The position numbers were made by a program, and so were the translations under genes. Below the pieces are notes generated by a model, which worked only from the letters and a program-made list of their open reading frames with translations, was not told the DNA's origin and searched no databases. Source: Chloroflexota bacterium (lineage in GTDB: Bacteria; Chloroflexota; UBA11872; VXOZ01). From it: a stretch of 64,000 nucleotides of DNA. Positions 2,542-15,357 of this stretch are shown in pieces. The stretch lies in assembly GCA_963662335.2 (NCBI GenBank), contig CAXXVD010000001.1, positions 608,001 to 672,000 on the forward strand. The letters are read 5' to 3'. Positions within the stretch are counted from its first letter, which is position 1, and every line of letters starts with the position of its first letter.

Positions 2542-3654
2542 ATGAGCGCCAGCGCCTCGCGCGCCGCCATCCTCTGGGCAATCATCCGCAAGGACTTGCT
2601 GGAATACCGCCGCGAGCGGTTCTTCGTCGTCATCACCGTCATCGGCATCGCGCTCTACGCCACCGCCTTCTGGCTGATGCCGAGCGACGTGGACGAATCG
2701 TTTGCCGTGGGCGTACGCCAGACCGGCATGGACGCCGTCTTTGCCCAGGCCATGGGCGACCAGGCTGCGGGCCTGGAAATCGTGCAGTTCGAGACCATTG
2801 AAGCGCTGGAGGCGGCGCTGGGCGTGGGCGGCGCGGAACCGGAGGAGCCGCTGGCGATTGGCCTGGCCTTCCCCGACGACTTCCTGCAACGGGTAGCCGC
2901 CGGCCAGCAGACCACGGTGCGGGTCTACGTGGACGCCAACGTGCCCGCCGAAATCCGGCGCGCCATGGCGAGTTTCGTGCGCGAGATCGCCTACGCCCTC
3001 TCCGGCAATCCCCTGCCGGTGGCCGAGCCTGACCGGGAAGTAATCGTGCTCGGTGAAGACCGGCTGGGCGCGCAGGTGCCGTTCCGCGAAAAGATGCGGC
3101 CCCTCTTTGCCTTCTTTGCGCTCATCATCGAGACCTTTGCCCTCAGTTCGCTGGTCGCCACCGAGATTCAGGCGCGCACGGTGACTGCCGTGCTGGTCTC
3201 GCCCACGCGGGTCTCCGACTTTCTAGCCGCCAAAGGCATCCTGGGCACGGGGATGGCGTTTGTCCAGGCCGTGCTCCTGCTGCTCATCATCGGCGCGTTC
3301 ACCACCCAGCCGCTCATCTTGCTCTGCGCGCTCCTGCTGGGCGCGGTGCTGGTGACCGGCTGCGGCCTGATCGCCGGCGCGGCGGGCAAGGACTTCATCG
3401 AGACGCTCTTCTACGGCATGGCCTTCATGGTGCCGCTGATGATTCCGGCAATCGCCGCGCTCTTTCCCGGCACCGCCGCGGCCTGGGTGAAAGTCCTGCC
3501 GTCCTACGGTCTGGTGCAGGCGGTGGTGCAGGCCAGCGCCTACAACGCCGGCTGGGCGGACGTGCTGCCGTACCTCGCCATGTTGCTGGCGTGGTGCGTG
3601 GTAGCCTTCGCGGCGGGATTGATAATCTTGAAGAGAAAGGTGGAGACGCTGTGA
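2542..3654 (+). CDS. ABC-2 type exporter permease
   Basis: N-terminal TM, large extracellular loop, five further TMs, E..ART..AVLVSP motif; operonic with the ATPase. Confidence 0.9.
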   Translation: MSASASRAAILWAIIRKDLLEYRRERFFVVITVIGIALYATAFWLMPSDVDESFAVGVRQTGMDAVFAQAMGDQAAGLEIVQFETIEALEAALGVGGAEPEEPLAIGLAFPDDFLQRVAAGQQTTVRVYVDANVPAEIRRAMASFVREIAYALSGNPLPVAEPDREVIVLGEDRLGAQVPFREKMRPLFAFFALIIETFALSSLVATEIQARTVTAVLVSPTRVSDFLAAKGILGTGMAFVQAVLLLLIIGAFTTQPLILLCALLLGAVLVTGCGLIAGAAGKDFIETLFYGMAFMVPLMIPAIAALFPGTAAAWVKVLPSYGLVQAVVQASAYNAGWADVLPYLAMLLAWCVVAFAAGLIILKRKVETL

Positions 3655-4718
3655 GCGGAATGAACACGTTGCACCTATTGCGCAAGGACCTGGGCGTCGG
3701 TCCGCGCTCGCCGATCTTCCTCTACGCCATCGCGCTGCCGGTGATTCTCACGCTGCTCATTCGCGTGGTGTTTGGCAGCCTCTTCGATCCCGCGCCCCGG
3801 CTGGGCATCGTGGATGAAGGCGACTCTCAGATTGTCGAGAACGCCCGCAATGTCGAGGGGGTCGAGATTAGATTTCCGGAATCCGCCGCCGCCTTGATGC
3901 AGATGGTGGAGAAAAACGACCTGGACGCGGGCCTGGTGCTGCCCATCGGCTTCGACGCGGCGTTGCGGGCGGGCCAGATGCCCAACGCGCAGTTCTTCTT
4001 CGGCGGCCAGAGCCTGGCCTCGAACCGCGTCGTGTTGGGCGTGACCATGGTTGACCTCATCCGCGAGGCGGCGGGGGCGCCGGCGCCCATCGACGTGGAA
4101 ACCGTCACCGTAGGCGATGGCGACGCGGCGCCGCTGGTAGCGCGGCTGTTGCCCTTGATCGTCCTCATGGCGGTGCTCATCGCCGGCGCGCTCACCCCGG
4201 CCACAAGCCTGGTGGAAGAAAAAGAGAAGCGCACGCTCACCGCGCTGCTGGTCACGCCGGCCCGGCTGGGTGACGTGCTGCTCGCCAAGGGCGCGTTGGG
4301 CTTCATCCTGGCCATGGCCACCGGCACGGTCACCCTGGCGCTGAACGGCGCGCTGGGCGCGAATACTGCCGCGCTGCTGTTGGTGCTGGTACTGGCGACC
4401 CTCATGGCGGCCGAGGTCGGCCTGATGCTCGGCTCGTTCGCCAAAGACACCAAAGCGCTCTACACCATCTGGAAGTCCGGCGCCATCGTCCTGCTCGCGC
4501 CCGTGATCTTCTTCATCTGGCCCAACCTGCCCCAGTGGATAGGAAAAATCTTCCCCACCTACTACTTCCTCTCTCCCCTCTTCGAGATCGCCATCCGCGG
4601 CGCCGGCCTGGCTGACGTGTGGCCGGAACTCGCCATCGGCTTCGGCATCTGCGCGGCGTTCCTGCTGGGCGTCTACGCCCTGGGGCGGCGCATGGAGTCA
4701 ACCCTGGCCGCGACATAA
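3651..4718 (+). CDS. ABC-2 type exporter permease (second subunit)
   Basis: EEKEKRTLTALLVTP motif, same topology; GTGA overlap with the upstream stop. Confidence 0.9.
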   Translation: MSGMNTLHLLRKDLGVGPRSPIFLYAIALPVILTLLIRVVFGSLFDPAPRLGIVDEGDSQIVENARNVEGVEIRFPESAAALMQMVEKNDLDAGLVLPIGFDAALRAGQMPNAQFFFGGQSLASNRVVLGVTMVDLIREAAGAPAPIDVETVTVGDGDAAPLVARLLPLIVLMAVLIAGALTPATSLVEEKEKRTLTALLVTPARLGDVLLAKGALGFILAMATGTVTLALNGALGANTAALLLVLVLATLMAAEVGLMLGSFAKDTKALYTIWKSGAIVLLAPVIFFIWPNLPQWIGKIFPTYYFLSPLFEIAIRGAGLADVWPELAIGFGICAAFLLGVYALGRRMESTLAAT

Positions 4719-4721
4719 GGA

Positions 4722-4781
4722 CGCCTGGATGATGAAGGCAGTCTCGTGTCCGCCCATCGGCCGCAGGCCAAATTGCGTTGA
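4722..4781 (+). pseudogene. Remnant 3' tail of a TolB-like array gene (RLDDEGSLVSAHRPQAKLR*)
   Basis: Translation matches the array-gene C-termini RIDDEGNLVPANSP and RLDDKGNLMPANPQ; starts right after the permease stop. Confidence 0.65.
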
Positions 4782-4885
4782 ACCCTAAACGGAATCTGTA
4801 TGTTACTGGGGATTCTCTAATCTGTTGGCCTCATCCGTTTGACATCATGGCAATATATGCGCTCTATCAGGTATATCACCCGTGA
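4778..4885 (+). other. Junction mini-ORF J0 (LNPKRNLYVTGDSLICWPHPFDIMAIYALYQVYHP*), putative metzincin C-terminal remnant
   Basis: Hand translation; open frame from a TTG overlapping the remnant stop; C-x-PHPFDI-AIYALYQ motif shared with five other junctions. Confidence 0.7.
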
Positions 4886-4904
4886 GTTAGCAAGGAGTGT
4901 CATC

Positions 4905-6227
4905 ATGCGGCGAGATTGGTCGACGCTGCGAAGGTTTCTCCTGCTGTTCACATTCCTGATCACTAGTGCTTGCAGTGGCAGCACATCTACTAGCGAGCCA
5001 GCCTACCCATGCGGGCCATTCTTCATTGGCGAGAGGGCATACAAACAATTCCCTCTCGAATGGACGCCCGACGGCAATCTTCTTATCTTTCGCGCAGGCA
5101 CAACCATTGGAGTAGTTGATGCCATAGGTACAAACCTGCGGACGCTTGCTGATGCGAATCCGGGAAACGAACTGATGTATGGCATTCATGTGGATATCTC
5201 ACCAGACGGTAGGCAGGTTGTTTACTCCAGTTGCGAATTCCCGACGGGAGGCGGGACAATACGACCCGCAAGGAAAGACTTCAACTATGAATTAGTCTTA
5301 GTCAACCTGGAAGGCACGGAAAAACAGCGTTTGACACTGAACACACATCTCGACCTCTACCCGGCGTGGTCACCCAATGGCAGCCGCATTGCCTTTGTTG
5401 CGAACCCGCGCAGCAGGCACGCGGAACTCTATGTTATGGCGGCAGATGGGTCAGATGTGCGGCAGGTAGCAACCACGCTCATAGAATCGGTTACCGAGAG
5501 ATACGGCAAGAGACTAGCGACAAACGCCCTACATACGCACTGGAAGAGAGGAGAGGGAGAAGATCTCAGCGATGACGAAGACGCGTGGTTGGGTGCCGTA
5601 GCCCTTGCGCCGCCGTTGTGGTCGCCCGACGGAAAGCGCTTGGCGTTCTTGGTCGAGGAAGGGGAGTATGGGCCGTATCAGAAGATCCTGTACTCGGTGC
5701 GCGCAGATGGAACAGACTTGAAGCGTGTGGCGGCGACGGAAGCTTTGCCAGCCTGGTCACCGGATGGGCAAAGGATAGCTCTGGTAACGTATGCCGGCGA
5801 TGATTTGGCGCTCTACACAATACTGGCAGACGGTTCTGACCCAAAGCTGATAACCACCGTAACAGAGAAGGAGACCTTCGAGCATCGGAACTCCCGATAC
5901 TTCAGCGCGGATTTTACTCTGTCGTGGTCGCCGGACGGCGCCCAGATACTCTATACCTGTGACTTTGGCGCGTGTGTAGTGAACGTAGGGAATAGCGAAG
6001 TTACTGTCTTGGTGGAGGGAACGACAAAGTGGGACGAAGAGACGTACATTGCAGCGTGGTCACCAGACGGTGCCCGCATTGCTCTGTACGTTCCCGGCAA
6101 TGACTACTACAACATACCGACCCAACTCTACACGATAGCCCGCGACGGCACCGACCGCCGCGACCTGATAGCCCTGGACACCAGCGGCAACCTGGCTCCG
6201 GCCAACCCACCGAAGGAGGCACCGTGA
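4905..6227 (+). CDS. TolB-like (PD40/WSPDG) beta-propeller lipoprotein, array gene 1 (C-terminal type A)
   Basis: AAGGAG SD then ATG 4905; lipobox ITSAC; repeated WSPDG blades; conserved YPCGP and SSCEF cysteines. Confidence 0.9.
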   Translation: MRRDWSTLRRFLLLFTFLITSACSGSTSTSEPAYPCGPFFIGERAYKQFPLEWTPDGNLLIFRAGTTIGVVDAIGTNLRTLADANPGNELMYGIHVDISPDGRQVVYSSCEFPTGGGTIRPARKDFNYELVLVNLEGTEKQRLTLNTHLDLYPAWSPNGSRIAFVANPRSRHAELYVMAADGSDVRQVATTLIESVTERYGKRLATNALHTHWKRGEGEDLSDDEDAWLGAVALAPPLWSPDGKRLAFLVEEGEYGPYQKILYSVRADGTDLKRVAATEALPAWSPDGQRIALVTYAGDDLALYTILADGSDPKLITTVTEKETFEHRNSRYFSADFTLSWSPDGAQILYTCDFGACVVNVGNSEVTVLVEGTTKWDEETYIAAWSPDGARIALYVPGNDYYNIPTQLYTIARDGTDRRDLIALDTSGNLAPANPPKEAP

Positions 6228-6321
6228 TGAACAGTGATCGGAAAATCCCTTATTTGCCAAGTTCCTTTCAAGAACCTGACTGTTCACCACACCCGTTTGA
6301 CATCCTGGCTATATATGCGCT
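6111..6321 (+). repeat. ~210 bp direct repeat spanning gene tail plus mini-ORF (copy 1)
   Basis: Near-identical to 7509-7718; tail part also matches ~10560-10681. Confidence 0.9.
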
Positions 6322-6340
6322 CTATCAGACAATTCCGTAA
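6227..6340 (+). CDS. Junction mini-ORF J1, 37 aa MNSDRKIPYLPSSFQEPDCSPHPFDILAIYALYQTIP (intact copy)
   Basis: ATG overlaps gene 1 stop (TGATG) and follows AAGGAGG; intact frame to TAA 6338-6340; motif conserved with synonymous changes across junctions. Confidence 0.6.
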   Translation: MNSDRKIPYLPSSFQEPDCSPHPFDILAIYALYQTIP

Positions 6341-6356
6341 GCAAAGGACTGTGAGC

Positions 6357-7625
6357 ATGCGACGATTCTGTTTGGCCGCATTGGGGCTGGCACTGGCCTT
6401 AAGTGTTGTCAGTTGCGGCCCACGGCAAACCGATGTATACGATGGAGACGCTTACCCATGTGGCCCGTTAGGGTTGGATGGCCCCTACCTCAATTTGGAA
6501 AGACATGTCCTTAACTGGACCCCGGACGGCTCTCAGCTCATTTTCCCCCACGATACAACCATTTGGATCGTTGACACCGCCGGAGTTCGGTTGAATGCGC
6601 TGGTTGACGTGAACCCGGACAACGAGCTTGGCTACGGCTTCCACGCCGATATTTCGCCGGACGGCACGCGCATGGTATATGCCACCTGCGAGTTCCACTC
6701 AAGCGACACCTTGTTTGTGCAACGAGATGACTACAATTACGAGATCGCCGTTATCAACCTCAATGGCACTGGTCGCCAGCGACTCACGACGAACCGAATA
6801 CTTGACTACTTTCCCGTTTGGTCGCCCGTCGGCAACCGTATCGCCTACATATCGAACCCTAGAGGAGCCAGCGACCACACCAACGAACTCTTCGCGATGG
6901 CAACGGACGGGTCGGACGTCCGGGACGTATTATCAAGTGCCACGCCTGCGAAAGTTAGCGATAGAAGACTGTATGGCAAGGTCGTGCTAGCGCCACCGAT
7001 GTGGTCGCCGCCAGACGGTAGCTACTTAGCATTTCTGGTGAATGAAGGAAGCAATATACCGTATCGGCACATTCTCTACACGGTGCACCTTGGTGCGATG
7101 GAGTTGACCCGGGTCGCAGAGGTGGCGGGTCTGCCGGAAGGCAGCCTTGTGCCAATCTTGCCGTCCTGGTCGCCGGATGGCGAACATCTTGCTTTCGTAA
7201 TGGCCGATGAGGAGGGTACGCCTGCCGGCGTCTACACTATCCGTCCAGATGCAACAGACCTGCGGCAGGTGCTGGAACCGCAAGCACCAGGTTGGAGAGT
7301 ATTCCACGTGGCTTGGGCGCCGGATGGTGCCGAGATTCTCGTCGTCACTGATCAGGGGTTGCATTTCATTCAGCCGGACGGTAGCGGTCTGCGCATGGTG
7401 GACCAGAGTACCGCGTTTCATGACTCCGTTGATAGCCTAGGGATTGCTGTGGCATGGTCACCTGACGGCACACGTATTGCGTTGTACTTACCAGGCGCTG
7501 CCTACAAGAACATACCGACCCAACTCTACACAATAGCCCGCGACGGCACCGACCGCCGCGATCTGATAACCCTGGACGCCGACGGCAACCTGGCTCCGGC
7601 CAACCCGCCGCAGGAGGCGCCGTGA
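6357..7625 (+). CDS. TolB-like beta-propeller lipoprotein, array gene 2 (type B)
   Basis: AAGGA SD, MRRFCLAAL... signal peptide, lipobox VVSC, WSPDG repeats, YPCGP and ATCEF. Confidence 0.9.
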   Translation: MRRFCLAALGLALALSVVSCGPRQTDVYDGDAYPCGPLGLDGPYLNLERHVLNWTPDGSQLIFPHDTTIWIVDTAGVRLNALVDVNPDNELGYGFHADISPDGTRMVYATCEFHSSDTLFVQRDDYNYEIAVINLNGTGRQRLTTNRILDYFPVWSPVGNRIAYISNPRGASDHTNELFAMATDGSDVRDVLSSATPAKVSDRRLYGKVVLAPPMWSPPDGSYLAFLVNEGSNIPYRHILYTVHLGAMELTRVAEVAGLPEGSLVPILPSWSPDGEHLAFVMADEEGTPAGVYTIRPDATDLRQVLEPQAPGWRVFHVAWAPDGAEILVVTDQGLHFIQPDGSGLRMVDQSTAFHDSVDSLGIAVAWSPDGTRIALYLPGAAYKNIPTQLYTIARDGTDRRDLITLDADGNLAPANPPQEAP

Positions 7626-7718
7626 TGAACAATGATCAGATTGCCCCTCATTACCAAGTTCCTTTCAAGAACCTGACTGTTCACCACACCCGTTTGACAT
7701 CCTGGCGATTTATGCGCT
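7509..7718 (+). repeat. ~210 bp direct repeat spanning gene tail plus mini-ORF (copy 2)
   Basis: Aligns with 6111-6321 with scattered substitutions and a 1-nt indel. Confidence 0.9.
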
Positions 7719-7734
7719 TTGTGAGACAAAGTGA
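7625..7734 (+). pseudogene. Junction mini-ORF J2 (MNNDQIAPH/PSSFQEPDCSPHPFDILAIYALCETK*), 1-nt frameshift
   Basis: ATG-to-TTTGAC distance is 68 nt versus 69 nt in J1; otherwise collinear. Confidence 0.7.
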
Positions 7735-7754
7735 CACTTGAGGACTCTATTGCT

Positions 7755-9119
7755 ATGGATTGGATCAAGCAGTTACCTATGTTCGTACTTGCCGCTGTAG
7801 TGTGTCTTGGCATGACTGCGTGTGCGCAAGAAAAGGGCGAAGGATCTGGCATGGATACACAGCCGACTTCCACGCCTTCAGTGCTGTCCACTCCGCTCAC
7901 CCCGCTGCCGACGCCAAGGGAAAAGGGGGACGAAACTTTGGTATTGCCCTGCGGGCCGACACCTCAGGAAGCAGGCGGTCATGATTTCTATGGCTTCGGC
8001 GATGTCTTTCTAGAGTTCACGCCAGATGGCTCCCAGCTAATGTTTTCTTACAGCACTTCCATTTGGATCGTTGATGTTGCGGGTACCCAATTGCGTATGC
8101 TGGTGAATGCCAATCCCCGAGGCAGCTTTGAATACGGCTTCCATGCCGACATTTCGCCTGACGGTACGCAGGTCGTCTTTTCGACCTGCGATTACCCTTG
8201 GGACGCTCAGAGTTTTGCCGCTAGGCATGGCAATGCATTGCTCTCACTGCCCGTATACTCACCTGACAAGTATGATATTGCCTTGATTGACATTGACGGT
8301 GACGCGCCACGGCGACTCACTAAGAGTCGATACTTGGACCACTTTCCGGCATGGTCGCCCGACGGAAGTCGCATCGCTTACATCCACTTCCTTGATAGTA
8401 CCCGCATGGGAATACCCCCCAGAACCATCCGAACGATGACGGCAAACGGCTCCGAGTGGCAGGAGGTTCAGAAGACTCGCAGTTTGGCAATTGCTGCCGC
8501 ACGGCTGGCGTGGTCGCCGGATGGGAAGAAGCTAGCATTCCTCGTACATGACTGGGAGAACTGGCCGCGTCAATATACCCTCTACACCGCCCTCGCCAAT
8601 GGCTCCGAATTGCGGAAAGTGGCTGAGAACGTTGTAAGCGACGCGGCATGGTCGCCGAATGGACAGCTTATTGCACTAGCAAGGCTCGTCGGCGAGGAAG
8701 TAGGGCTCTACACTCTGGCCGCTGACGGCTCCGACCAGAAGCTGATTGCTGCCATTAACGACATAGAGGGGTACCTGGACTGGTCTGTTGAATTCACATC
8801 TTTGTTGGTGAACTCGGAGGCGTGGTCGCCGGATGGCACTATGCTTCTCTATTCTTGTCTTGAAGGCGCATGCGTAATTGATGTCGAGAGTGGACAGAGC
8901 ATCGGGCTGGTATCCGACAGTGCAGTGAGGTATCGCCAACCTTTCATTGCAGCTTGGTCTCCGGACGGCTCGCGAATCGCGATCTATACGCCCGGGCACA
9001 CTTTTGACGGCGTACCGGCCCGGCTTTTCACAGTAGCCCGTGACGGAAACGACCACAGCGATCTGATACGTATAGATGACGAGGGCAATTTGGTGCCAGC
9101 GAACTCGCCAAGAGAATGA
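7755..9119 (+). CDS. TolB-like beta-propeller lipoprotein, array gene 3 (type A)
   Basis: GAGGA SD, lipobox MTAC, P/T-rich linker, LPCGP and STCDY, WSPDG repeats, YSCLEGAC motif. Confidence 0.9.
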   Translation: MDWIKQLPMFVLAAVVCLGMTACAQEKGEGSGMDTQPTSTPSVLSTPLTPLPTPREKGDETLVLPCGPTPQEAGGHDFYGFGDVFLEFTPDGSQLMFSYSTSIWIVDVAGTQLRMLVNANPRGSFEYGFHADISPDGTQVVFSTCDYPWDAQSFAARHGNALLSLPVYSPDKYDIALIDIDGDAPRRLTKSRYLDHFPAWSPDGSRIAYIHFLDSTRMGIPPRTIRTMTANGSEWQEVQKTRSLAIAAARLAWSPDGKKLAFLVHDWENWPRQYTLYTALANGSELRKVAENVVSDAAWSPNGQLIALARLVGEEVGLYTLAADGSDQKLIAAINDIEGYLDWSVEFTSLLVNSEAWSPDGTMLLYSCLEGACVIDVESGQSIGLVSDSAVRYRQPFIAAWSPDGSRIAIYTPGHTFDGVPARLFTVARDGNDHSDLIRIDDEGNLVPANSPRE

Positions 9120-9256
9120 ACCATGTTTAACTATCCCATATTTTCGCCTGACCCTCTGCTAGCCCATGGCAGACGCGAATCCTCGGCGTGCCTGACTGTT
9201 CACCACACCCGTTTGACATCCTGGCAATCTACGCTCTGTACCAGACGTTACCGTGA
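9116..9256 (+). pseudogene. Junction mini-ORF J3 (MNHV*...*...VPDCSPHPFDILAIYALYQTLP*), two in-frame stops
   Basis: ATG 9116 overlaps gene 3 stop and is in frame with the motif; stops at 9128 and 9149. Confidence 0.7.
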
Positions 9257-9266
9257 GGAAAGACTG

Positions 9267-10676
9267 TTGTTCCAGCGAATAGTTCGTGTAGGATTGCTTG
9301 TGCTTCTGACACTGGCTGTTGTCGCATGCCAGCAAGACTCGATCAGATCCCAACAAGAGACAACTATCGGTGAGAGGATTCAAGCTAATGCAAGTCCTTC
9401 GCCTATAGCCATCGTCGTACCAACGGCAACACCCTATCCGACTCCAGATACTGCGCCAGACGGTGAGCCAAGTTTTGATTGTGGCCCACTGGGCATGGCT
9501 GGGCCTCACGCAGCTTCAGAAAGACTGACTCTGGCGTGGACGCCGGATAGCACTCAGATCTTATTCAACTACGCGCCTACAGACAGACAGCAATATGATG
9601 GGAAACCGCTCTTCTTAAGTGCCTTTTGGATGGTGGACGCGGCCGGCACGAGGTTGCAGATGCTTGTGGATTCCAATCCCGGCTATTACTCCGCTTACGG
9701 ATATCACGCTGACTTGTCCCCGGATGGTAAGCGGATTGCATACACTACTTGCGAGTTTGCTCACGAAGGATTCCTAGGTTACCGCGGCGAAAACATGGAA
9801 CGAGCACGATTCCTGTACGAGATTGCTGTCATCAACCTAGACGGTACTGGTCAGGAGCGGATCACGGCGAATAGATATCTTGAGCACTATCCAGTCTGGT
9901 CGCCCGATGGTTACCGCATCGCGCTCATTTCAAACTCTGCCGGGCCACACAGAACCCTTCGAAACGGCCGTACTGTACTCTACACAATATCGGCAGACGG
10001 ATCCGATTGGCAACGGGTGTCGGTGCCTGAACAAACCGGCTTGGCACTCGCGCCGCCGGCGTGGTCTCCCGATGGAGTGTACCTAGCGTTCGTGGCAGAT
10101 GGAGGAGAAAACCTATCGAATAGGAGTGTTTTGTATACCGTGAGGGCAGATGGGTCAGAAGGAGGCAGAATTGCAGATATTGCGACCAAGTCAGGTCTAC
10201 TGTGGCACTTGCCAACGCTACCCAGTTGGTCACCGGATGGTAAACACCTTGCATTTGTGAAGGCTGCCGGCAATGGCAGGTCTGGCGGCATCTACTTGGC
10301 ACGACCTGATGGCTCAAACTTGCAACAAGTGCTGCAACCGCAAGAGCCGAACTGGAACATCACTCAAGTCTTGTGGTCGCCAGATGGCTCGGAGATTCTT
10401 GCAGTATCGGATCAGCGGCTTTACTTCTTCCAACCGGACGGTAGCAGTCTGCGGACGGTGGAACTGAGGGTTGAAGAATTCTACGGCCCTAAGCGAATAG
10501 TTGCATGGGCGCCAAACAGTACCCGTATCGCAATCTACACACTGTTAGACAGTAGCAGTAACATACAGCCTCAGCTCTACACAGTAGCCCGGGACGGTAC
10601 CAACCGCCGCGACCTGATAACCCTGGACGCCGACGGCAACCTGGCTCCGGCCAACCCACCGCAGGGGGCACCATGA
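9267..10676 (+). CDS. TolB-like beta-propeller lipoprotein, array gene 4 (type B)
   Basis: GAGGA SD then TTG 9267; lipobox VVAC; FDCGP and TTCEF; WSPDG repeats. Confidence 0.88.
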   Translation: MFQRIVRVGLLVLLTLAVVACQQDSIRSQQETTIGERIQANASPSPIAIVVPTATPYPTPDTAPDGEPSFDCGPLGMAGPHAASERLTLAWTPDSTQILFNYAPTDRQQYDGKPLFLSAFWMVDAAGTRLQMLVDSNPGYYSAYGYHADLSPDGKRIAYTTCEFAHEGFLGYRGENMERARFLYEIAVINLDGTGQERITANRYLEHYPVWSPDGYRIALISNSAGPHRTLRNGRTVLYTISADGSDWQRVSVPEQTGLALAPPAWSPDGVYLAFVADGGENLSNRSVLYTVRADGSEGGRIADIATKSGLLWHLPTLPSWSPDGKHLAFVKAAGNGRSGGIYLARPDGSNLQQVLQPQEPNWNITQVLWSPDGSEILAVSDQRLYFFQPDGSSLRTVELRVEEFYGPKRIVAWAPNSTRIAIYTLLDSSSNIQPQLYTVARDGTNRRDLITLDADGNLAPANPPQGAP

Positions 10677-10752
10677 TGAACCCTAGCCGGATTGTCCACC
10701 GCATGCGCTGGACATCCTGGCGATCTATGCACTCTGCCAAAGCCGCGACTGA
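10676..10752 (+). pseudogene. Junction mini-ORF J4 (MNP/*PDCPPHALDILAIYALCQSRD*), internally deleted
   Basis: ATGAAC overlapping gene 4 stop; TAG at 10684 where other copies have the Glu of EPDC; motif in frame 10687-10752. Confidence 0.7.
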
Positions 10753-10768
10753 GGATTGGAGTGTCAAA

Positions 10769-12220
10769 GTGGGACGTCTGTGGCTGGTTCTGTTGGTGCT
10801 ATTGCTGTGTCTGGCCGCTTGCGCGGAGGACAAAAGCGAGACCAGAAACAAGATCAATGAAGAGCAGGCACGTGAACTTGCGGAGCAGCGTCGTGAGCGC
10901 GACAGGATTGCCTATGAAGAGAAGCTAAAGGAGATTGAGGAACTTCGCAGGAAGCGCGACCAAGAGCTGATAGATAGCAATTTCGGGCATCCTCGCCTGC
11001 CGTGCGGAATGTCTCAGTTGGGCTATCCCCCGGTTGCCTACCACGACAATTTCTTGGTGTGGACGCCGGACGGTACACGTCTCATATTCGATGGAGGACC
11101 AGAGGCAATATGGGAGGTGAATACTGAAGGAACCGCGGTGAGAAGGCTCTTTGACATTAATCCAAATGGGAATCGACCCTACGTAGATGAGACTAAGTTA
11201 CCCTACGGCTTCTTTGCCGACGTTTCACCGAACGGAAAACTAATCGTCAGTGGCATTTGCAGGAATGACACTGGCAGGCCGATCGAACACTATGAGATCG
11301 CCGTATTCGACCTGCGCGATGGCGGGAGGCAGCTTCTCACGGACAATGCCATTCTCGACCGCTACCCGGTGTGGTCGCCGGACGGCAGCCGGATCGCCTA
11401 CGTTAGTTTCGCGAGATATTTTGGCTTACACCACCGACTCTACACAGTGGCAGCGGACGGGTCGGACAGGCGGATCGCGACTTCCGTGCCGGTTACGTTC
11501 TATCCGGCGCAAACTGCGGCTGAAGAGAAAGACGCAGCGGTACCCAAGTTAAGAGGAATTGCGCTGTTTCCGCCAGCGTGGTCACCGGACGGCAAGAAGC
11601 TGGCGTTCCTGGTATACGAAGAATCTGAAGTGAAGTACGATCCGCGTCGGAAGATACTCTACACCGTGCGGGCAGACGGTTCGGAGTTGGCACGGATAGC
11701 CGAGGATGTCGTAAGCGTGGCATCGTGGTCGCCGGACGGGCAACGGCTGGCGGTGGCCAAGTACGCCGGGGAAGCAAGAGAAGGCGTTGCGCTCTTCACG
11801 CTGGCAGCCGACGGTTCCGACGAGAAAGAGATTGCTACCATCACGGACAGCATCAGCGCATTCCGTAGCAGCTATGAGTGGAAAGTCCACACGGTGTCGT
11901 GGTCACCAGATGGGACACAGATCCTCTACTCCTGTGATGAGGGCGCGTGCGTTGTTACTTTGGAGGATGGGCAGGTGACCGGGTTGGTAACAGAACTGGA
12001 GTTGCGTGACAACGCGCCGTACATTGCAGCCTGGTCTCCCGATGGCACGCGCATCGCCGTATACGATCCAATTGGCCCCACAGCTAGCTATCCCGGCTAC
12101 GAGATGCCACCCGCGCTCTATACGGTGGCCCCAGACGGCACTGACCGTCACGATTTGCTACGCTTGGATGATAAGGGCAACCTGATGCCCGCGAACCCGC
12201 AACAATTAGAGGGATCATGA
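10769..12220 (+). CDS. TolB-like beta-propeller lipoprotein, array gene 5 (type A) with charged coiled-coil N-terminal stalk
   Basis: GGAG SD then GTG 10769; lipobox LAAC; EEQARELAEQRRERDR... stalk; LPCGM and GICRN; YSCDEGAC motif. Confidence 0.9.
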   Translation: MGRLWLVLLVLLLCLAACAEDKSETRNKINEEQARELAEQRRERDRIAYEEKLKEIEELRRKRDQELIDSNFGHPRLPCGMSQLGYPPVAYHDNFLVWTPDGTRLIFDGGPEAIWEVNTEGTAVRRLFDINPNGNRPYVDETKLPYGFFADVSPNGKLIVSGICRNDTGRPIEHYEIAVFDLRDGGRQLLTDNAILDRYPVWSPDGSRIAYVSFARYFGLHHRLYTVAADGSDRRIATSVPVTFYPAQTAAEEKDAAVPKLRGIALFPPAWSPDGKKLAFLVYEESEVKYDPRRKILYTVRADGSELARIAEDVVSVASWSPDGQRLAVAKYAGEAREGVALFTLAADGSDEKEIATITDSISAFRSSYEWKVHTVSWSPDGTQILYSCDEGACVVTLEDGQVTGLVTELELRDNAPYIAAWSPDGTRIAVYDPIGPTASYPGYEMPPALYTVAPDGTDRHDLLRLDDKGNLMPANPQQLEGS

Positions 12221-12345
12221 TGGAAGTCTACGAGATGTCCCCTGCTCTCGCAGATGTCTTTGGCGGCTGAATGGCATTCTGTGAGCCGGTTTGCACACCA
12301 CTCCGTTCGACTTCATGTCGATTTACGGCCTCTGTCCAATGCGTT
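12220..12345 (+). pseudogene. Junction mini-ORF J5 (MEVYEMSPALADVFGG*MAFCEPVCTP/PFDFMSIYGLC), decayed
   Basis: ATG overlapping gene 5 stop is in frame with EPVC; one stop, then a 1-nt deletion before PFD. Confidence 0.6.
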
Positions 12346-12353
12346 ATAAGGAA

Positions 12354-13733
12354 ATGGAGAGAAGGTTCGTGGATTTCGGACAAGAACAGACAAAACTGAC
12401 CCTGTTAGTAATTGTAATACTCGTCTTGGGTATGGTCGGCTGTGGGGAAGCAGCAGCACCTCCACATAAGCGAATAGTAAAGGATCATCCCGCATATCCT
12501 TGCGGTCCGTACTGGAACGGAGTTGGTTCCCTTGATGGTTTTCTCCATTGGATACCTGATGGCTCCGGTCTAATATTTGGACAGGAGGGGGAGATTTGGA
12601 CAACGGATAACAGCGGCAGTTCGCTGCGGCGGATTGCTCATTCCAGTTCCGACTACGAGTCTGCCATCGGCTCCTATGCGGATGTGTCGCCAAACGGCGA
12701 CAAGATCGTCTATGCGACGTGCGAGTATCGGACAGAAGAAGCCAGAGAATACGGATCAAATCCCGAGCGAAGCAAATACAACTTCGAGATCGCCGTTGTT
12801 GACTTGGCAAGCGGGGAAAAACAGCGGCTGACAACGAACGTGTACCTTGATCACTACCCGGTTTGGTCACCCGATGGCGCCCACATTGCTTTCATTGCAA
12901 ACCCACGCACTTGGGGCCGCTCCATAGGGGAAAACTCGGAAGTCTATATGATGAGGACGGATGGATCGGACGTGCGGCTGCTAGCTTCCACCTTAAACGA
13001 AGTGAGCACTGGGAGATGGGAAACAAACGCCATCGCAAACAGTCTGAAGAGATCCAAGGGAGAGAAGATTGAGGAATCTGTTGAGCCGTGGCTAGGCGCG
13101 GTAGCCTTGGCGCCGCCGGTGTGGTCCCCAGTCGGTGAGCACGTGGCTTTTCTGGTTGGAGAAGGTCCAGGCCCTAACTTACATGATCGGGCAGTTCTCT
13201 ATACGGTTCGGCCAGATGGATCGGAGTTGACACGGATTGCGGAAGCGATGTTCCCGCCGTCGTGGTCACCAGACGGCAACTTCCTTGTCTTCGTTAGGGC
13301 AGACGAGGAGGGCAAGGCCGCAGGCGTTTACACTGCCCGTCCCGATGGTACCGAACTAGCACAGATCCTGGCGACACAAGAACCTGAGTGGGTAATCACT
13401 CAAGTGCTGTGGTCACCGGATGGGCAGGAAATCCTTGCAGTCTCGGAGCAGCGGCTCGATTTTCTCCAGCCTGATGGCAGTGGTTTGCGAACTATCGACA
13501 TGGCGCTAGATCCAGAATCGCTCGCGGCTGGGCTCAGACCCAGCTTTGGGCTGATTGCCGCATGGTCGCCGGATAGCGCACGCATTGCCTTTTATGTCCC
13601 ACTTCACGAGCGCTATGAAGTGCCATTAACACTCTACACCCTGGCGCGAGACGGAAAAGACAGGCGCGACCTGGTCACTCTGGATGAAGACGGCAACCTG
13701 GCCCCAGCCAAGCCGCCACAGCAGTCCGAGTGA
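12354..13733 (+). CDS. TolB-like beta-propeller lipoprotein, array gene 6 (type B C-half, gene-1-like insert)
   Basis: Lipobox MVGC, YPCGP and ATCEY, WSPDG repeats; start is ATG 12354 or GTG 12369. Confidence 0.88.
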   Translation: MERRFVDFGQEQTKLTLLVIVILVLGMVGCGEAAAPPHKRIVKDHPAYPCGPYWNGVGSLDGFLHWIPDGSGLIFGQEGEIWTTDNSGSSLRRIAHSSSDYESAIGSYADVSPNGDKIVYATCEYRTEEAREYGSNPERSKYNFEIAVVDLASGEKQRLTTNVYLDHYPVWSPDGAHIAFIANPRTWGRSIGENSEVYMMRTDGSDVRLLASTLNEVSTGRWETNAIANSLKRSKGEKIEESVEPWLGAVALAPPVWSPVGEHVAFLVGEGPGPNLHDRAVLYTVRPDGSELTRIAEAMFPPSWSPDGNFLVFVRADEEGKAAGVYTARPDGTELAQILATQEPEWVITQVLWSPDGQEILAVSEQRLDFLQPDGSGLRTIDMALDPESLAAGLRPSFGLIAAWSPDSARIAFYVPLHERYEVPLTLYTLARDGKDRRDLVTLDEDGNLAPAKPPQQSE

Positions 13734-13814
13734 TGACCTATGCAATAGCACTCGTTGCATTTGTACCGCACGGGTTGTTGGGAGTGTCCCTTCTCCTTTT
13801 TCCCCTACTCCTAC

Positions 13815-15357
<1,543 letters not shown>

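Follow-up and report, generated by a model that had tools for sequence, protein, structure and literature searches.

Why would a bacterial chromosome line up six divergent copies of one lipoprotein gene, each behind the same short coding-like segment? The question is raised by a block in a stretch of 64,000 nucleotides from a Chloroflexota bacterium (assembly GCA_963662335.2, contig CAXXVD010000001.1, positions 608,001 to 672,000), referred to here as the window, in which six tandem open reading frames (ORFs) of 462-517 codons lie on the + strand between an ABC-2 permease gene and guaA (window 4.7-13.8 kb). Our analysis shows that each cassette of this block combines a whole beta-propeller lipoprotein gene with only the 3' end of a protease gene. 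We consider it very probable that the block, in origin and architecture, is a row of six orphan cassettes from a two-gene protease-propeller module. That the propeller lipoprotein neutralises the protease, as inhibitor or immunity protein, is a tentative proposal on which doubt is slightly ahead, and the explanation as a whole, origin plus neutralising function, could equally well prove right or wrong.

Six propeller genes and six protease-end remnants

The lipoprotein genes and the segments upstream of them, called remnants after the full-length proteases described below, follow one another in this order:

4823..4885, + strand: remnant 1, C-terminal helix only (CWPHPFDIMAIYALYQVYHP, then stop), without Met-turn or start codon; upstream DNA unrelated to the protease
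4905..6227, + strand: propeller lipoprotein 1, lipobox TSAC; PD40 repeats; ATG start behind an AAGGAG ribosome-binding site; conserved tail
6227..6340, + strand: remnant 2, single unbroken frame of 37 codons from Met-turn Met to stop (MNSDRKIPYLPSSFQEPDCSPHPFDILAIYALYQTIP, then stop)
6357..7625, + strand: propeller lipoprotein 2, lipobox VVSC; PD40
7636..7734, + strand: remnant 3, ending in FQEPDCSPHPFDILAIYALCETK, then stop; frame differs from the GTGATGAAC Met-turn junction at 7622-7630; invariant Tyr replaced by Cys
7755..9119, + strand: propeller lipoprotein 3, probable start MDWIKQ…; lipobox MTAC
9152..9256, + strand: remnant 4, ending in VPDCSPHPFDILAIYALYQTLP, then stop; Met-turn ATG at 9123 (MFNYPIFSPDP…) in another frame, which continues into gene 4
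9267..10676, + strand: propeller lipoprotein 4, probable TTG start; lipobox VVAC; PD40
10687..10752, + strand: remnant 5, PDCPPHALDILAIYALCQSRD, then stop; a stop codon directly upstream; one invariant Pro and the invariant Tyr lost
10769..12220, + strand: propeller lipoprotein 5, probable GTG start; lipobox LAAC
12285..12338, + strand: remnant 6, a degenerate copy (AGLHTTPFDFMSIYGLCP) that shares the frame of gene 6; tip profile 6.5 bits
12339..13733, + strand: propeller lipoprotein 6, lipobox MVGC; PD40; M17 or M22 of the ORF as listed is the start

The first-pass annotation, made from the letters of the window, had described six tandem, divergent TolB-like lipoprotein genes with a common tail, and this description held. 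PD40 repeats were detected in genes 1, 2, 4 and 6, the four that were scanned against Pfam (E 1e-12 to 3e-25), all six translations begin with a signal peptide that ends in a lipobox-like Cys, and pairwise identity among the six proteins is 34-52%. The tail (LYT.ARDG.DRRDL..LD..GNL.PANPP) corresponds to a 97-nt family of six copies with 68-100% identity (LYTVARDGTDRRDL…GNLAPANPP); it is exact in genes 1, 2 and 4 and carries substitutions in genes 3, 5 and 6. This propeller tail and the protease end are the best-conserved DNA of the cassettes, the gene bodies being much less conserved. A structure model of the propeller (pLDDT 83) has its best structural match in TolB (2ivz, E 8.4e-15) and also matches the gating propellers of S9 peptidases and DPP-IV (TM 0.48-0.52 for the S9 peptidases). 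Judged by these matches, the propeller may serve as a surface-anchored platform to which other proteins bind. Most Chloroflexota have no outer membrane.

The short coding-like segment that had been noted before each gene is likewise present, as a 54-nt family of five clear copies (72-100% identity) and a sixth, degenerate copy found by alignment. Its frame reads (E)PDCSPHPFDILAIYALYQ. Variable sites in copies 1-5 number 6, 4 and 13 at codon positions 1, 2 and 3 (18 codons each; Fisher p = 0.003), and this concentration at third positions indicates a coding-type pattern. Remnant 2 is the sole window copy that can be read from the Met-turn Met through the stop; it matches the protease profile with E 1.1e-11, and its ATG overlaps the TGA stop of gene 1 by one base. 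The remaining copies are damaged in various ways. A Tyr that is invariant in the full-length proteases is replaced by Cys in remnants 3, 5 and 6, and a Pro or Cys is lost in 5 and 6. The GTGATGAAC junction, the Val-Met-Asn of the turn, is common to cassettes 2, 3 and 5, with the helix off-frame or behind a stop in 3 and 5. An intact homolog of remnant 4 is present in the related locus L019. Remnant 1 is cut within the helix and the window holds no protease at the head of the array, which is consistent with a deletion of that protease. Remnants 2-4 are identical across 35 nt; the propellers that go with them are 34-52% identical. Since this identity includes synonymous sites, it points to gene conversion rather than to selection on a peptide.

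A promoter based on the perfect TTGACA in remnants 1-4 was considered and rejected: a consensus scan called no site there on the + strand, and the hexamer represents Phe-Asp-Ile codons. The longest ORFs of genes 4 and 5 (9123-10676 and 10673-12220) begin at a leftover Met-turn ATG and cross the remnant in the wrong frame, so that automatic annotation would add false N-termini of 30-50 residues. Gene callers would over-extend several such lipoprotein genes through the remnants in this way (ORFs of 517 and 515 aa in this case).

The full-length module and its protease domain

Remnant 2, as the intact copy, was used as a tblastn query against the window's own genome. Five further copies of the motif were found 181-197 kb upstream on the same contig (C1), three of which are the C-terminal ends of large ORFs:

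C1:406440-411437: protease of 1665 aa that has a signal peptide, numerous FN3 repeats and Pro/Thr linkers (catalytic domain C1:410238-411434); the gene behind it (mature product C1:411454-412875) encodes a propeller lipoprotein with the window-type tail
C1:414938-417067: protease of 709 aa; followed by a lipoprotein with PD40 and leucine-rich repeats (LRR)
C1:425085-427263 (425085-426872 / 426703-427263): frameshifted protease of ~780 aa; followed by a PD40 and LRR lipoprotein

All three share one order of elements, namely HE[AG]GHALG, a His, a turn of the D-S-V-M-x-Y type, the C-terminal motif and the stop, and a PD40 lipoprotein is encoded a few bases 3' of each (3/3 in this genome). The motif had been expected to close large zinc-protease proteins whose genes stand right before a gene for a WSPDG-type lipoprotein. 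It was found in this position, in HExxHxxG proteins, here and in relatives as well. Two more cassettes of remnant and propeller lie at 419 kb and 421 kb on the same contig. The proposal that the units descend from a two-gene locus, a metzincin-like protease followed by a propeller, is thus supported by full modules 190 kb away. Its second part, that this genome had kept only the lipoproteins, does not stand, as three full or near-full proteases exist.

The last ~380 residues of the protease define a sizeable family, with 676 cluster representatives at E <= 1e-3 and 153 at E <= 1e-30, in which the domain is nearly always found at the extreme C-terminus of proteins of 207-2676 aa. In Pfam only fn3 and Pur_ac_phosph_N matched on two full proteases (E <= 0.01), no NCBIfam family matched the protease domain at E <= 0.1, and its best match by sequence in the PDB had an E value of 0.95. 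In 19 aligned sequences H320, E321, H324 and G327 of the HExxHxxG motif, which all three proteases of this genome carry, are invariant, as are a distal His, five Cys and the terminal C-x-P-x-P-x-D…Y; the Met of the Met-turn (D-S-V-M-x-Y type) is present in 17 of the 19. The zinc motif HExxHxxGxxH of the first-pass annotation was not borne out: the position six residues after the second His varies (E, G, A, F, S and others), and the invariant H341 is found 17 residues after it. With the third zinc ligand off its usual place, the family would be atypical among metzincins. A displaced third zinc ligand is known from leishmanolysin.

The fold was assessed on an AlphaFold model (mean pLDDT 66), residues 1-100 of which form an FN3-like sandwich. 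The top Foldseek matches were mostly metzincins, with weak scores (E 0.01-0.07). VIA-align of residues 120-379 gave snapalysin (4hx3, Z 11.4, root mean square deviation 3.0, 128 aligned), MMP-2 (11.3), MMP-9 (11.1), alkaline protease (10.9) and astacin (9.6), together with ADAMs, and every match spanning residues 120-379 within ranks 1-20 was a metzincin. The nearest language-model clusters were M57, M10 and reprolysin (scores of 0.81-0.87 for M57 and M10), which are to be taken as leads only. From these models the C-terminal protease domain is predicted to have a metzincin fold, in which the C-terminal helix is part of the folded catalytic domain (VIA-align). As the full-length proteins end in the motif and carry this predicted fold, the segment in the window corresponds to the last part of a protease gene, which begins at the Met-turn and closes with the C-terminal helix. 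The extreme C-terminus is also the most conserved segment of the protease; the N-terminal parts vary widely.

In total, 12 family propellers of this genome stand beside a protease end or remnant, and there are two to three proteases that could use them. A lone family propeller at C1:464408-465754 (- strand, E 1e-124 to the window profile) has a decayed protease end, DCSPSLIHSMPIFAIYQS, upstream (tblastn E = 1.0) and makes a thirteenth cassette, apparently an older one. PD40 proteins without a detected remnant also occur in the genome (C1:125898 and C3:229662).

The block had been described as lower in GC than its flanks, and so it is (0.53-0.58 at 4501-13500 as against 0.63-0.70 in most flanking bins and 0.646 genome-wide). 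Family genes throughout this genome have a GC content of 0.53-0.59, and the ORF of the 1665-aa protease reaches 0.63 overall with 0.555 in the catalytic domain. Low GC is therefore a trait of the module and not of the site.

The region C1:406440-429052 (L001, L002) is a second locus of the system, in which some propellers bear an added C-terminal LRR ending in …GLEYCE. Two LRR lipoprotein ORFs of this region (412903-415140 and 422996-425287) have Pro/Thr-rich 3' ends that overlap the 5' ends of the next protease ORFs; a frameshift that divided a fused gene, or a misassembled repeat, could account for these overlaps.

Cassettes in relatives and a chromosomal hotspot

A profile search of genome contigs with a 5-row alignment yielded 27 loci, 26 of them titled Chloroflexota, Dehalococcoidia or Tepidiformaceae. 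The sole locus outside Chloroflexota, from a metagenome-assembled genome (MAG) of Bdellovibrionales (L029), is a weak match with 29% identity over residues 267-379 (E 6e-4). A motif scan of the related loci found 42 protease ends, of which 41 were counted, one lying at a locus edge. A propeller-family ORF started between -200 and +300 nt of 36 of the 41, that is, of 18 out of 21 full-length and 18 out of 20 short ends, and for at least two of the five unlinked ends (L004, L020) a propeller lies just beyond this range. Seen from the other side, a protease end could be recognised no more than 200 nt from the start of 52 of the 61 long propeller ORFs. The link between propeller homologs and proteases, on which the first-pass annotation had staked its proposal, is a tight one.

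A class-level sample of 98 genomes from 20 genera contained the protease domain in 34 genomes and 4 genera; 6 of 16 congeners had none. Arrays of the kind seen in the window are common. In one congener (G005), 4 full proteases, 7 remnants and 11 propellers share a locus of 31 kb, another (G003) has 2 full proteases followed by 4 remnant-propeller cassettes, and a third (G008) has 6 such cassettes with 6 intact propellers and remnants of 57-201 codons. Arrays are also present in L003, L008 and L019, and the form in which a full protease and its propeller precede repeated units of remnant and propeller occurs in relatives. In G008, G011 and G096, which are 97-99% complete, only C-terminal fragments of the protease were detected at E <= 1e-8; their propeller ORFs are intact.

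Truncation points of the remnants vary from 7 to 212 codons. Many remnants begin near profile positions 294-297 (before HExxH), 342-349 (the Met-turn) or 200-250, and this clustering suggests recombination at conserved sequence blocks. Unbroken short remnant frames were also seen at C1:419166 and in L008 and L019. Over all loci the median tip-profile score is 40.6 bits for orphan ends (n = 59) and 38.2 bits for full-length ends (n = 29). The remnants are either young or maintained by some means.

The permease-guaA site was compared in 11 congeners. Six sites are empty, with the two genes adjacent, and five are occupied. In G003 the site holds a full-length protease (frame of 1047 codons) and one propeller; G005, G011 and G008 have 4, 3 and 1 propellers and G006 has two propeller fragments, all without a full protease. 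Across 12 genomes of the genus the site thus contains 0 to 6 cassettes or a full module. The best identity of propellers between species is 38-60%, as against 82-94% for the flanking proteins, and near-identical cassettes are not shared; hence the content of the array varies and is not passed on by vertical descent. As a hotspot, the site gains and loses cassettes quickly, and the variation between related genomes agrees with what the first-pass annotation had predicted.

The borders of the site and the six ORFs as listed are:

3591..4718, + strand: ABC-2 permease gene, left border of the variable site; 82-89% identity in 12 congeners
4839-6227, 6234-7625, 7731-9119, 9123-10676, 10673-12220 and 12291-13733, + strand: the six ORFs
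13815..15329, - strand: guaA (GMP synthase), right border of the variable site

The flanks of the block consist of housekeeping genes (thymidylate kinase, ABC ATPase, two ABC-2 permeases, guaA, creatininase). In agreement with the first-pass annotation, no integrase, transposase or tol/pal gene was found among the eight flanking ORFs scanned. A comparison of empty congener sites with the edges of the site in the window showed homology within the flanking gene ends only, and no repeats resembling attachment sites were seen. In six empty sites (L042, L044, L047, L050, L051, L052) two repeat-like elements are conserved in the permease-guaA spacer of 300-445 nt: one forms a perfect hairpin around GGGCACGACATGTCGTGCCC, the other is a palindromic unit of the CTCTCCCAAGACTGGGAGAGGGCCGGGGTGAGGGTTGA type, which is present in two copies in L044. 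Both elements are missing from the window.

Contigs of four public runs from one study were compared with the region. Every 400-base depth bin was covered, and run contigs span the junctions 3-to-4, 5-to-6 and 6-to-guaA. Among the contigs listed, none spans the junctions 1-to-2, 2-to-3 and 4-to-5 (6094-6280, 7558-7677 and 10520-10741). The four runs are probably the source sample, and the contigs therefore do not count as independent support. Of the sequencing runs listed for this stretch, none is recorded as RNA. As the listed contigs stop and restart where propeller tail meets protease end, short-read MAGs probably show such arrays broken up or collapsed. Cassette junctions are points at which short-read assemblies break.

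Origin of the arrays and possible roles of the propeller

The starting point would be a module whose first gene encodes an exported protein in which a C-terminal zinc protease domain of predicted metzincin fold is combined with a signal peptide, FN3 repeats and Pro/Thr linkers, and whose second gene, a few bases on, encodes a PD40 (TolB-like) beta-propeller lipoprotein. Arrays would arise as protease genes are displaced or deleted and the partner genes retained; the conserved junction of propeller tail and protease end would then be the place of gene conversion and unequal crossing-over. Recombination at this junction would keep the remnants coding-like, and we read them as leftovers refreshed in this manner and not as peptide genes. 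The surface-anchored propeller may bind and neutralise its cognate protease as an inhibitor or immunity protein, and orphan propellers may protect against the proteases of neighbouring relatives. This reading would best explain genomes that have propellers only, together with the rapid diversification, although we hold it with slightly less than balanced confidence. The inhibitor or receptor role that the first-pass annotation had suggested is likewise tentative. A more specific version, in which a stalked, Sec-exported metzincin attacks surface proteins of neighbours in a conflict among Chloroflexota kin, with PD40 propellers as cognate surface immunity proteins and the fast-changing orphan arrays as a defensive library that the conserved protease end and propeller tail would keep ready for recombination, is possible but rather doubtful.

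The architecture has counterparts among bacterial toxin systems. In polymorphic toxins such as Rhs and CdiA, what is retained at the C-terminus is a toxin domain that varies and is attached at a conserved pre-toxin motif. Their orphans resemble the cassettes described here in that 3' fragments of the gene for a large exported protein are stacked with the next gene, downstream of or apart from the full gene. In contrast, the part retained here is the most conserved piece of a single catalytic family, and the variable element is the partner; a variable C-terminal toxin on a conserved N-terminal part, the strict mark of polymorphic toxins, is not what we found. The available text of a survey of such toxins (Zhang et al. 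2012, PMC3482391) mentions neither PD40 nor TolB nor metzincin.

The closest parallel is found in type VI secretion system (T6SS) clusters of Vibrio cholerae, where displacement of effectors leaves arrays of immunity genes with the shifted 3' ends of older effectors (Kirchberger et al. 2017, PMC5361080). Both systems have a full effector followed by its partner gene, downstream partner arrays, an older effector 3' end shifted back and a content that differs between related strains, for which homologous recombination was invoked in V. cholerae. They differ in that a Sec-type exported metzincin-like protease takes the place of the effector here, with no secretion-system genes nearby, that the partners are PD40 propeller lipoproteins of ~450 residues in Chloroflexota hosts, and that toxicity and immunity are hypothetical in our case. 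The order of effector and partner gene, the partner arrays with 3' remnants and a content variable between species, which characterise orphan arrays, were all observed.

Lipoprotein partners of proteases have precedents as well. Some KLIKK peptidases are metzincins. In Tannerella forsythia the potempins are surface lipoprotein inhibitors, each specific to the adjacent KLIKK peptidase (PMC9890683). Potempins have 98-132 residues and are encoded upstream of the peptidase, whereas the partner here is a large propeller encoded downstream, and the abstract of that work describes no orphan arrays or gene remnants. In Listeria monocytogenes the genetic partner of a secreted metzincin is a lipoprotein thought to inhibit it; according to the abstract this lipoprotein is TIMP-like and the locus single (PMC8235301), in contrast to the propeller and the cassette arrays described here. 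With TolB itself the window family shares the PD40 repeats and the best structural match (2ivz), but its members are lipoproteins, have no tol/pal gene among the eight flanking ORFs and stay far below the TIGR02800 cut-off for TolB equivalogs (71.6 bits for window gene 2 and 136.7 for the 417-kb paralog, with a cut-off of 343), unlike TolB of Tol-Pal. The statement of the first-pass annotation that it knew of no described system with this architecture needs to be divided: the general architecture is described, in V. cholerae T6SS clusters and in orphans of Rhs and contact-dependent growth inhibition (CDI) systems, but no description of a module of metzincin and PD40 lipoprotein was found in the literature searched, which did not extend to subscription journals. 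In that literature we found neither the pairing of these two families nor a case of it from Chloroflexota.

A complex prediction for protease residues 85-379 with the cognate propeller gave no answer (score 0.00) and speaks for neither side. Several considerations weigh against a neutralising role or an origin by displacement. A neutralising role presupposes that the propeller binds the protease and that the protease would harm cells. Because the retained protease end is its most conserved part, the cassettes carry no alternative 'toxin', unlike Rhs/CDI orphans. Known metzincin inhibitors are, to our knowledge, small proteins and not propellers of ~450 residues. Nine of the 61 propeller genes lack a recognisable remnant, for example three back-to-back genes in L016. 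The GTGATGAAC junction shared by cassettes 2, 3 and 5 argues for in-place duplication of one unit and not for six displacements. Finally, with orphan ends scoring as well as full-length ends, the remnants appear undecayed and could have a function of their own.

The strongest competitor, which we nevertheless regard as unlikely, is that the propeller lipoprotein serves as an adaptor or anchor that tethers the protease to the membrane or recruits substrates, with extra propellers widening the substrate range. Lipoprotein partners of envelope proteases are known from NlpI-Prc and LbcA-CtpA. Near-abutting genes fit a stoichiometric complex as well as an inhibitor pair, the nearest structures (TolB, E 8e-15; S9, TM 0.48-0.52) are platforms for peptide or protein binding and gating propellers, and an excess of 12 family propellers over two to three usable proteases would suit a widened substrate range. 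However, the three congeners with intact propeller arrays and no full-length protease at E <= 1e-8 argue against it, since an adaptor would be useless there, and the very fast turnover with 38-60% identity between species is more typical of conflict genes than of housekeeping adaptors.

An expansion of paralogs unrelated to the protease is less probable still. The propellers would then be surface binding proteins for nutrients, adhesion or envelope upkeep, and the protease end would be carried along for a ribosome-binding site or other expression signals. The short distance from remnant end to propeller start, 17-23 nt in cassettes 1, 2, 3 and 5 and fewer in 4 and 6, would suit such a signal, and both the intact propellers of congeners in which no full-length protease was detected and the PD40 proteins without a remnant at C1:125898 and C3:229662 agree with an independent role. 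On the other hand, the scan called no sigma-70-like promoter within a remnant (4 sites, all on the - strand, with 4.8 expected from shuffles), an expression signal would not yield variation mainly at third codon positions, and the linkage to full-length proteases (18/21) is too regular for chance.

The possibility that the remnants are functional mini-genes for peptides of ~25-40 residues, or leader ORFs whose translation is coupled to that of the propeller gene before them, fits the intact 37-codon frame of remnant 2 with its overlapping ATG, the similar frames at C1:419166, L008 and L019, the tip-profile scores and the third-position bias, but is very improbable, as five of the six window remnants cannot be read through from a Met-turn start (3 and 4 change frame, 5 has a stop directly upstream, 1 lacks the Met-turn and 6 is degenerate), three of six have lost residues invariant in full-length proteases (Tyr to Cys in 3, 5 and 6; Pro/Cys in 5 and 6), truncation points range from 7 to 212 codons, the 35-nt identity of remnants 2-4 points to gene conversion, and in a metzincin this helix belongs to the folded catalytic domain.

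An origin of the array as orphan cassettes of a protease-propeller module with a possibly neutralising propeller therefore remains our preferred reading. The analysis defines a sizeable, so far unnamed protease domain family with a fixed genetic partner, the propeller lipoprotein. The orphan-cassette logic of toxin-immunity systems in Proteobacteria is seen in uncultured genomes of the Chloroflexota lineage as well (26 of 27 related loci). Should the propellers prove to be inhibitors or immunity proteins, they would represent a new structural class of protease inhibitor and a form of bacterial conflict that is independent of secretion systems. If conflict among kin is indeed what drives these arrays, they would contain the first beta-propeller immunity family and would constitute the first such system in the phylum, one that does without a dedicated secretion machine.

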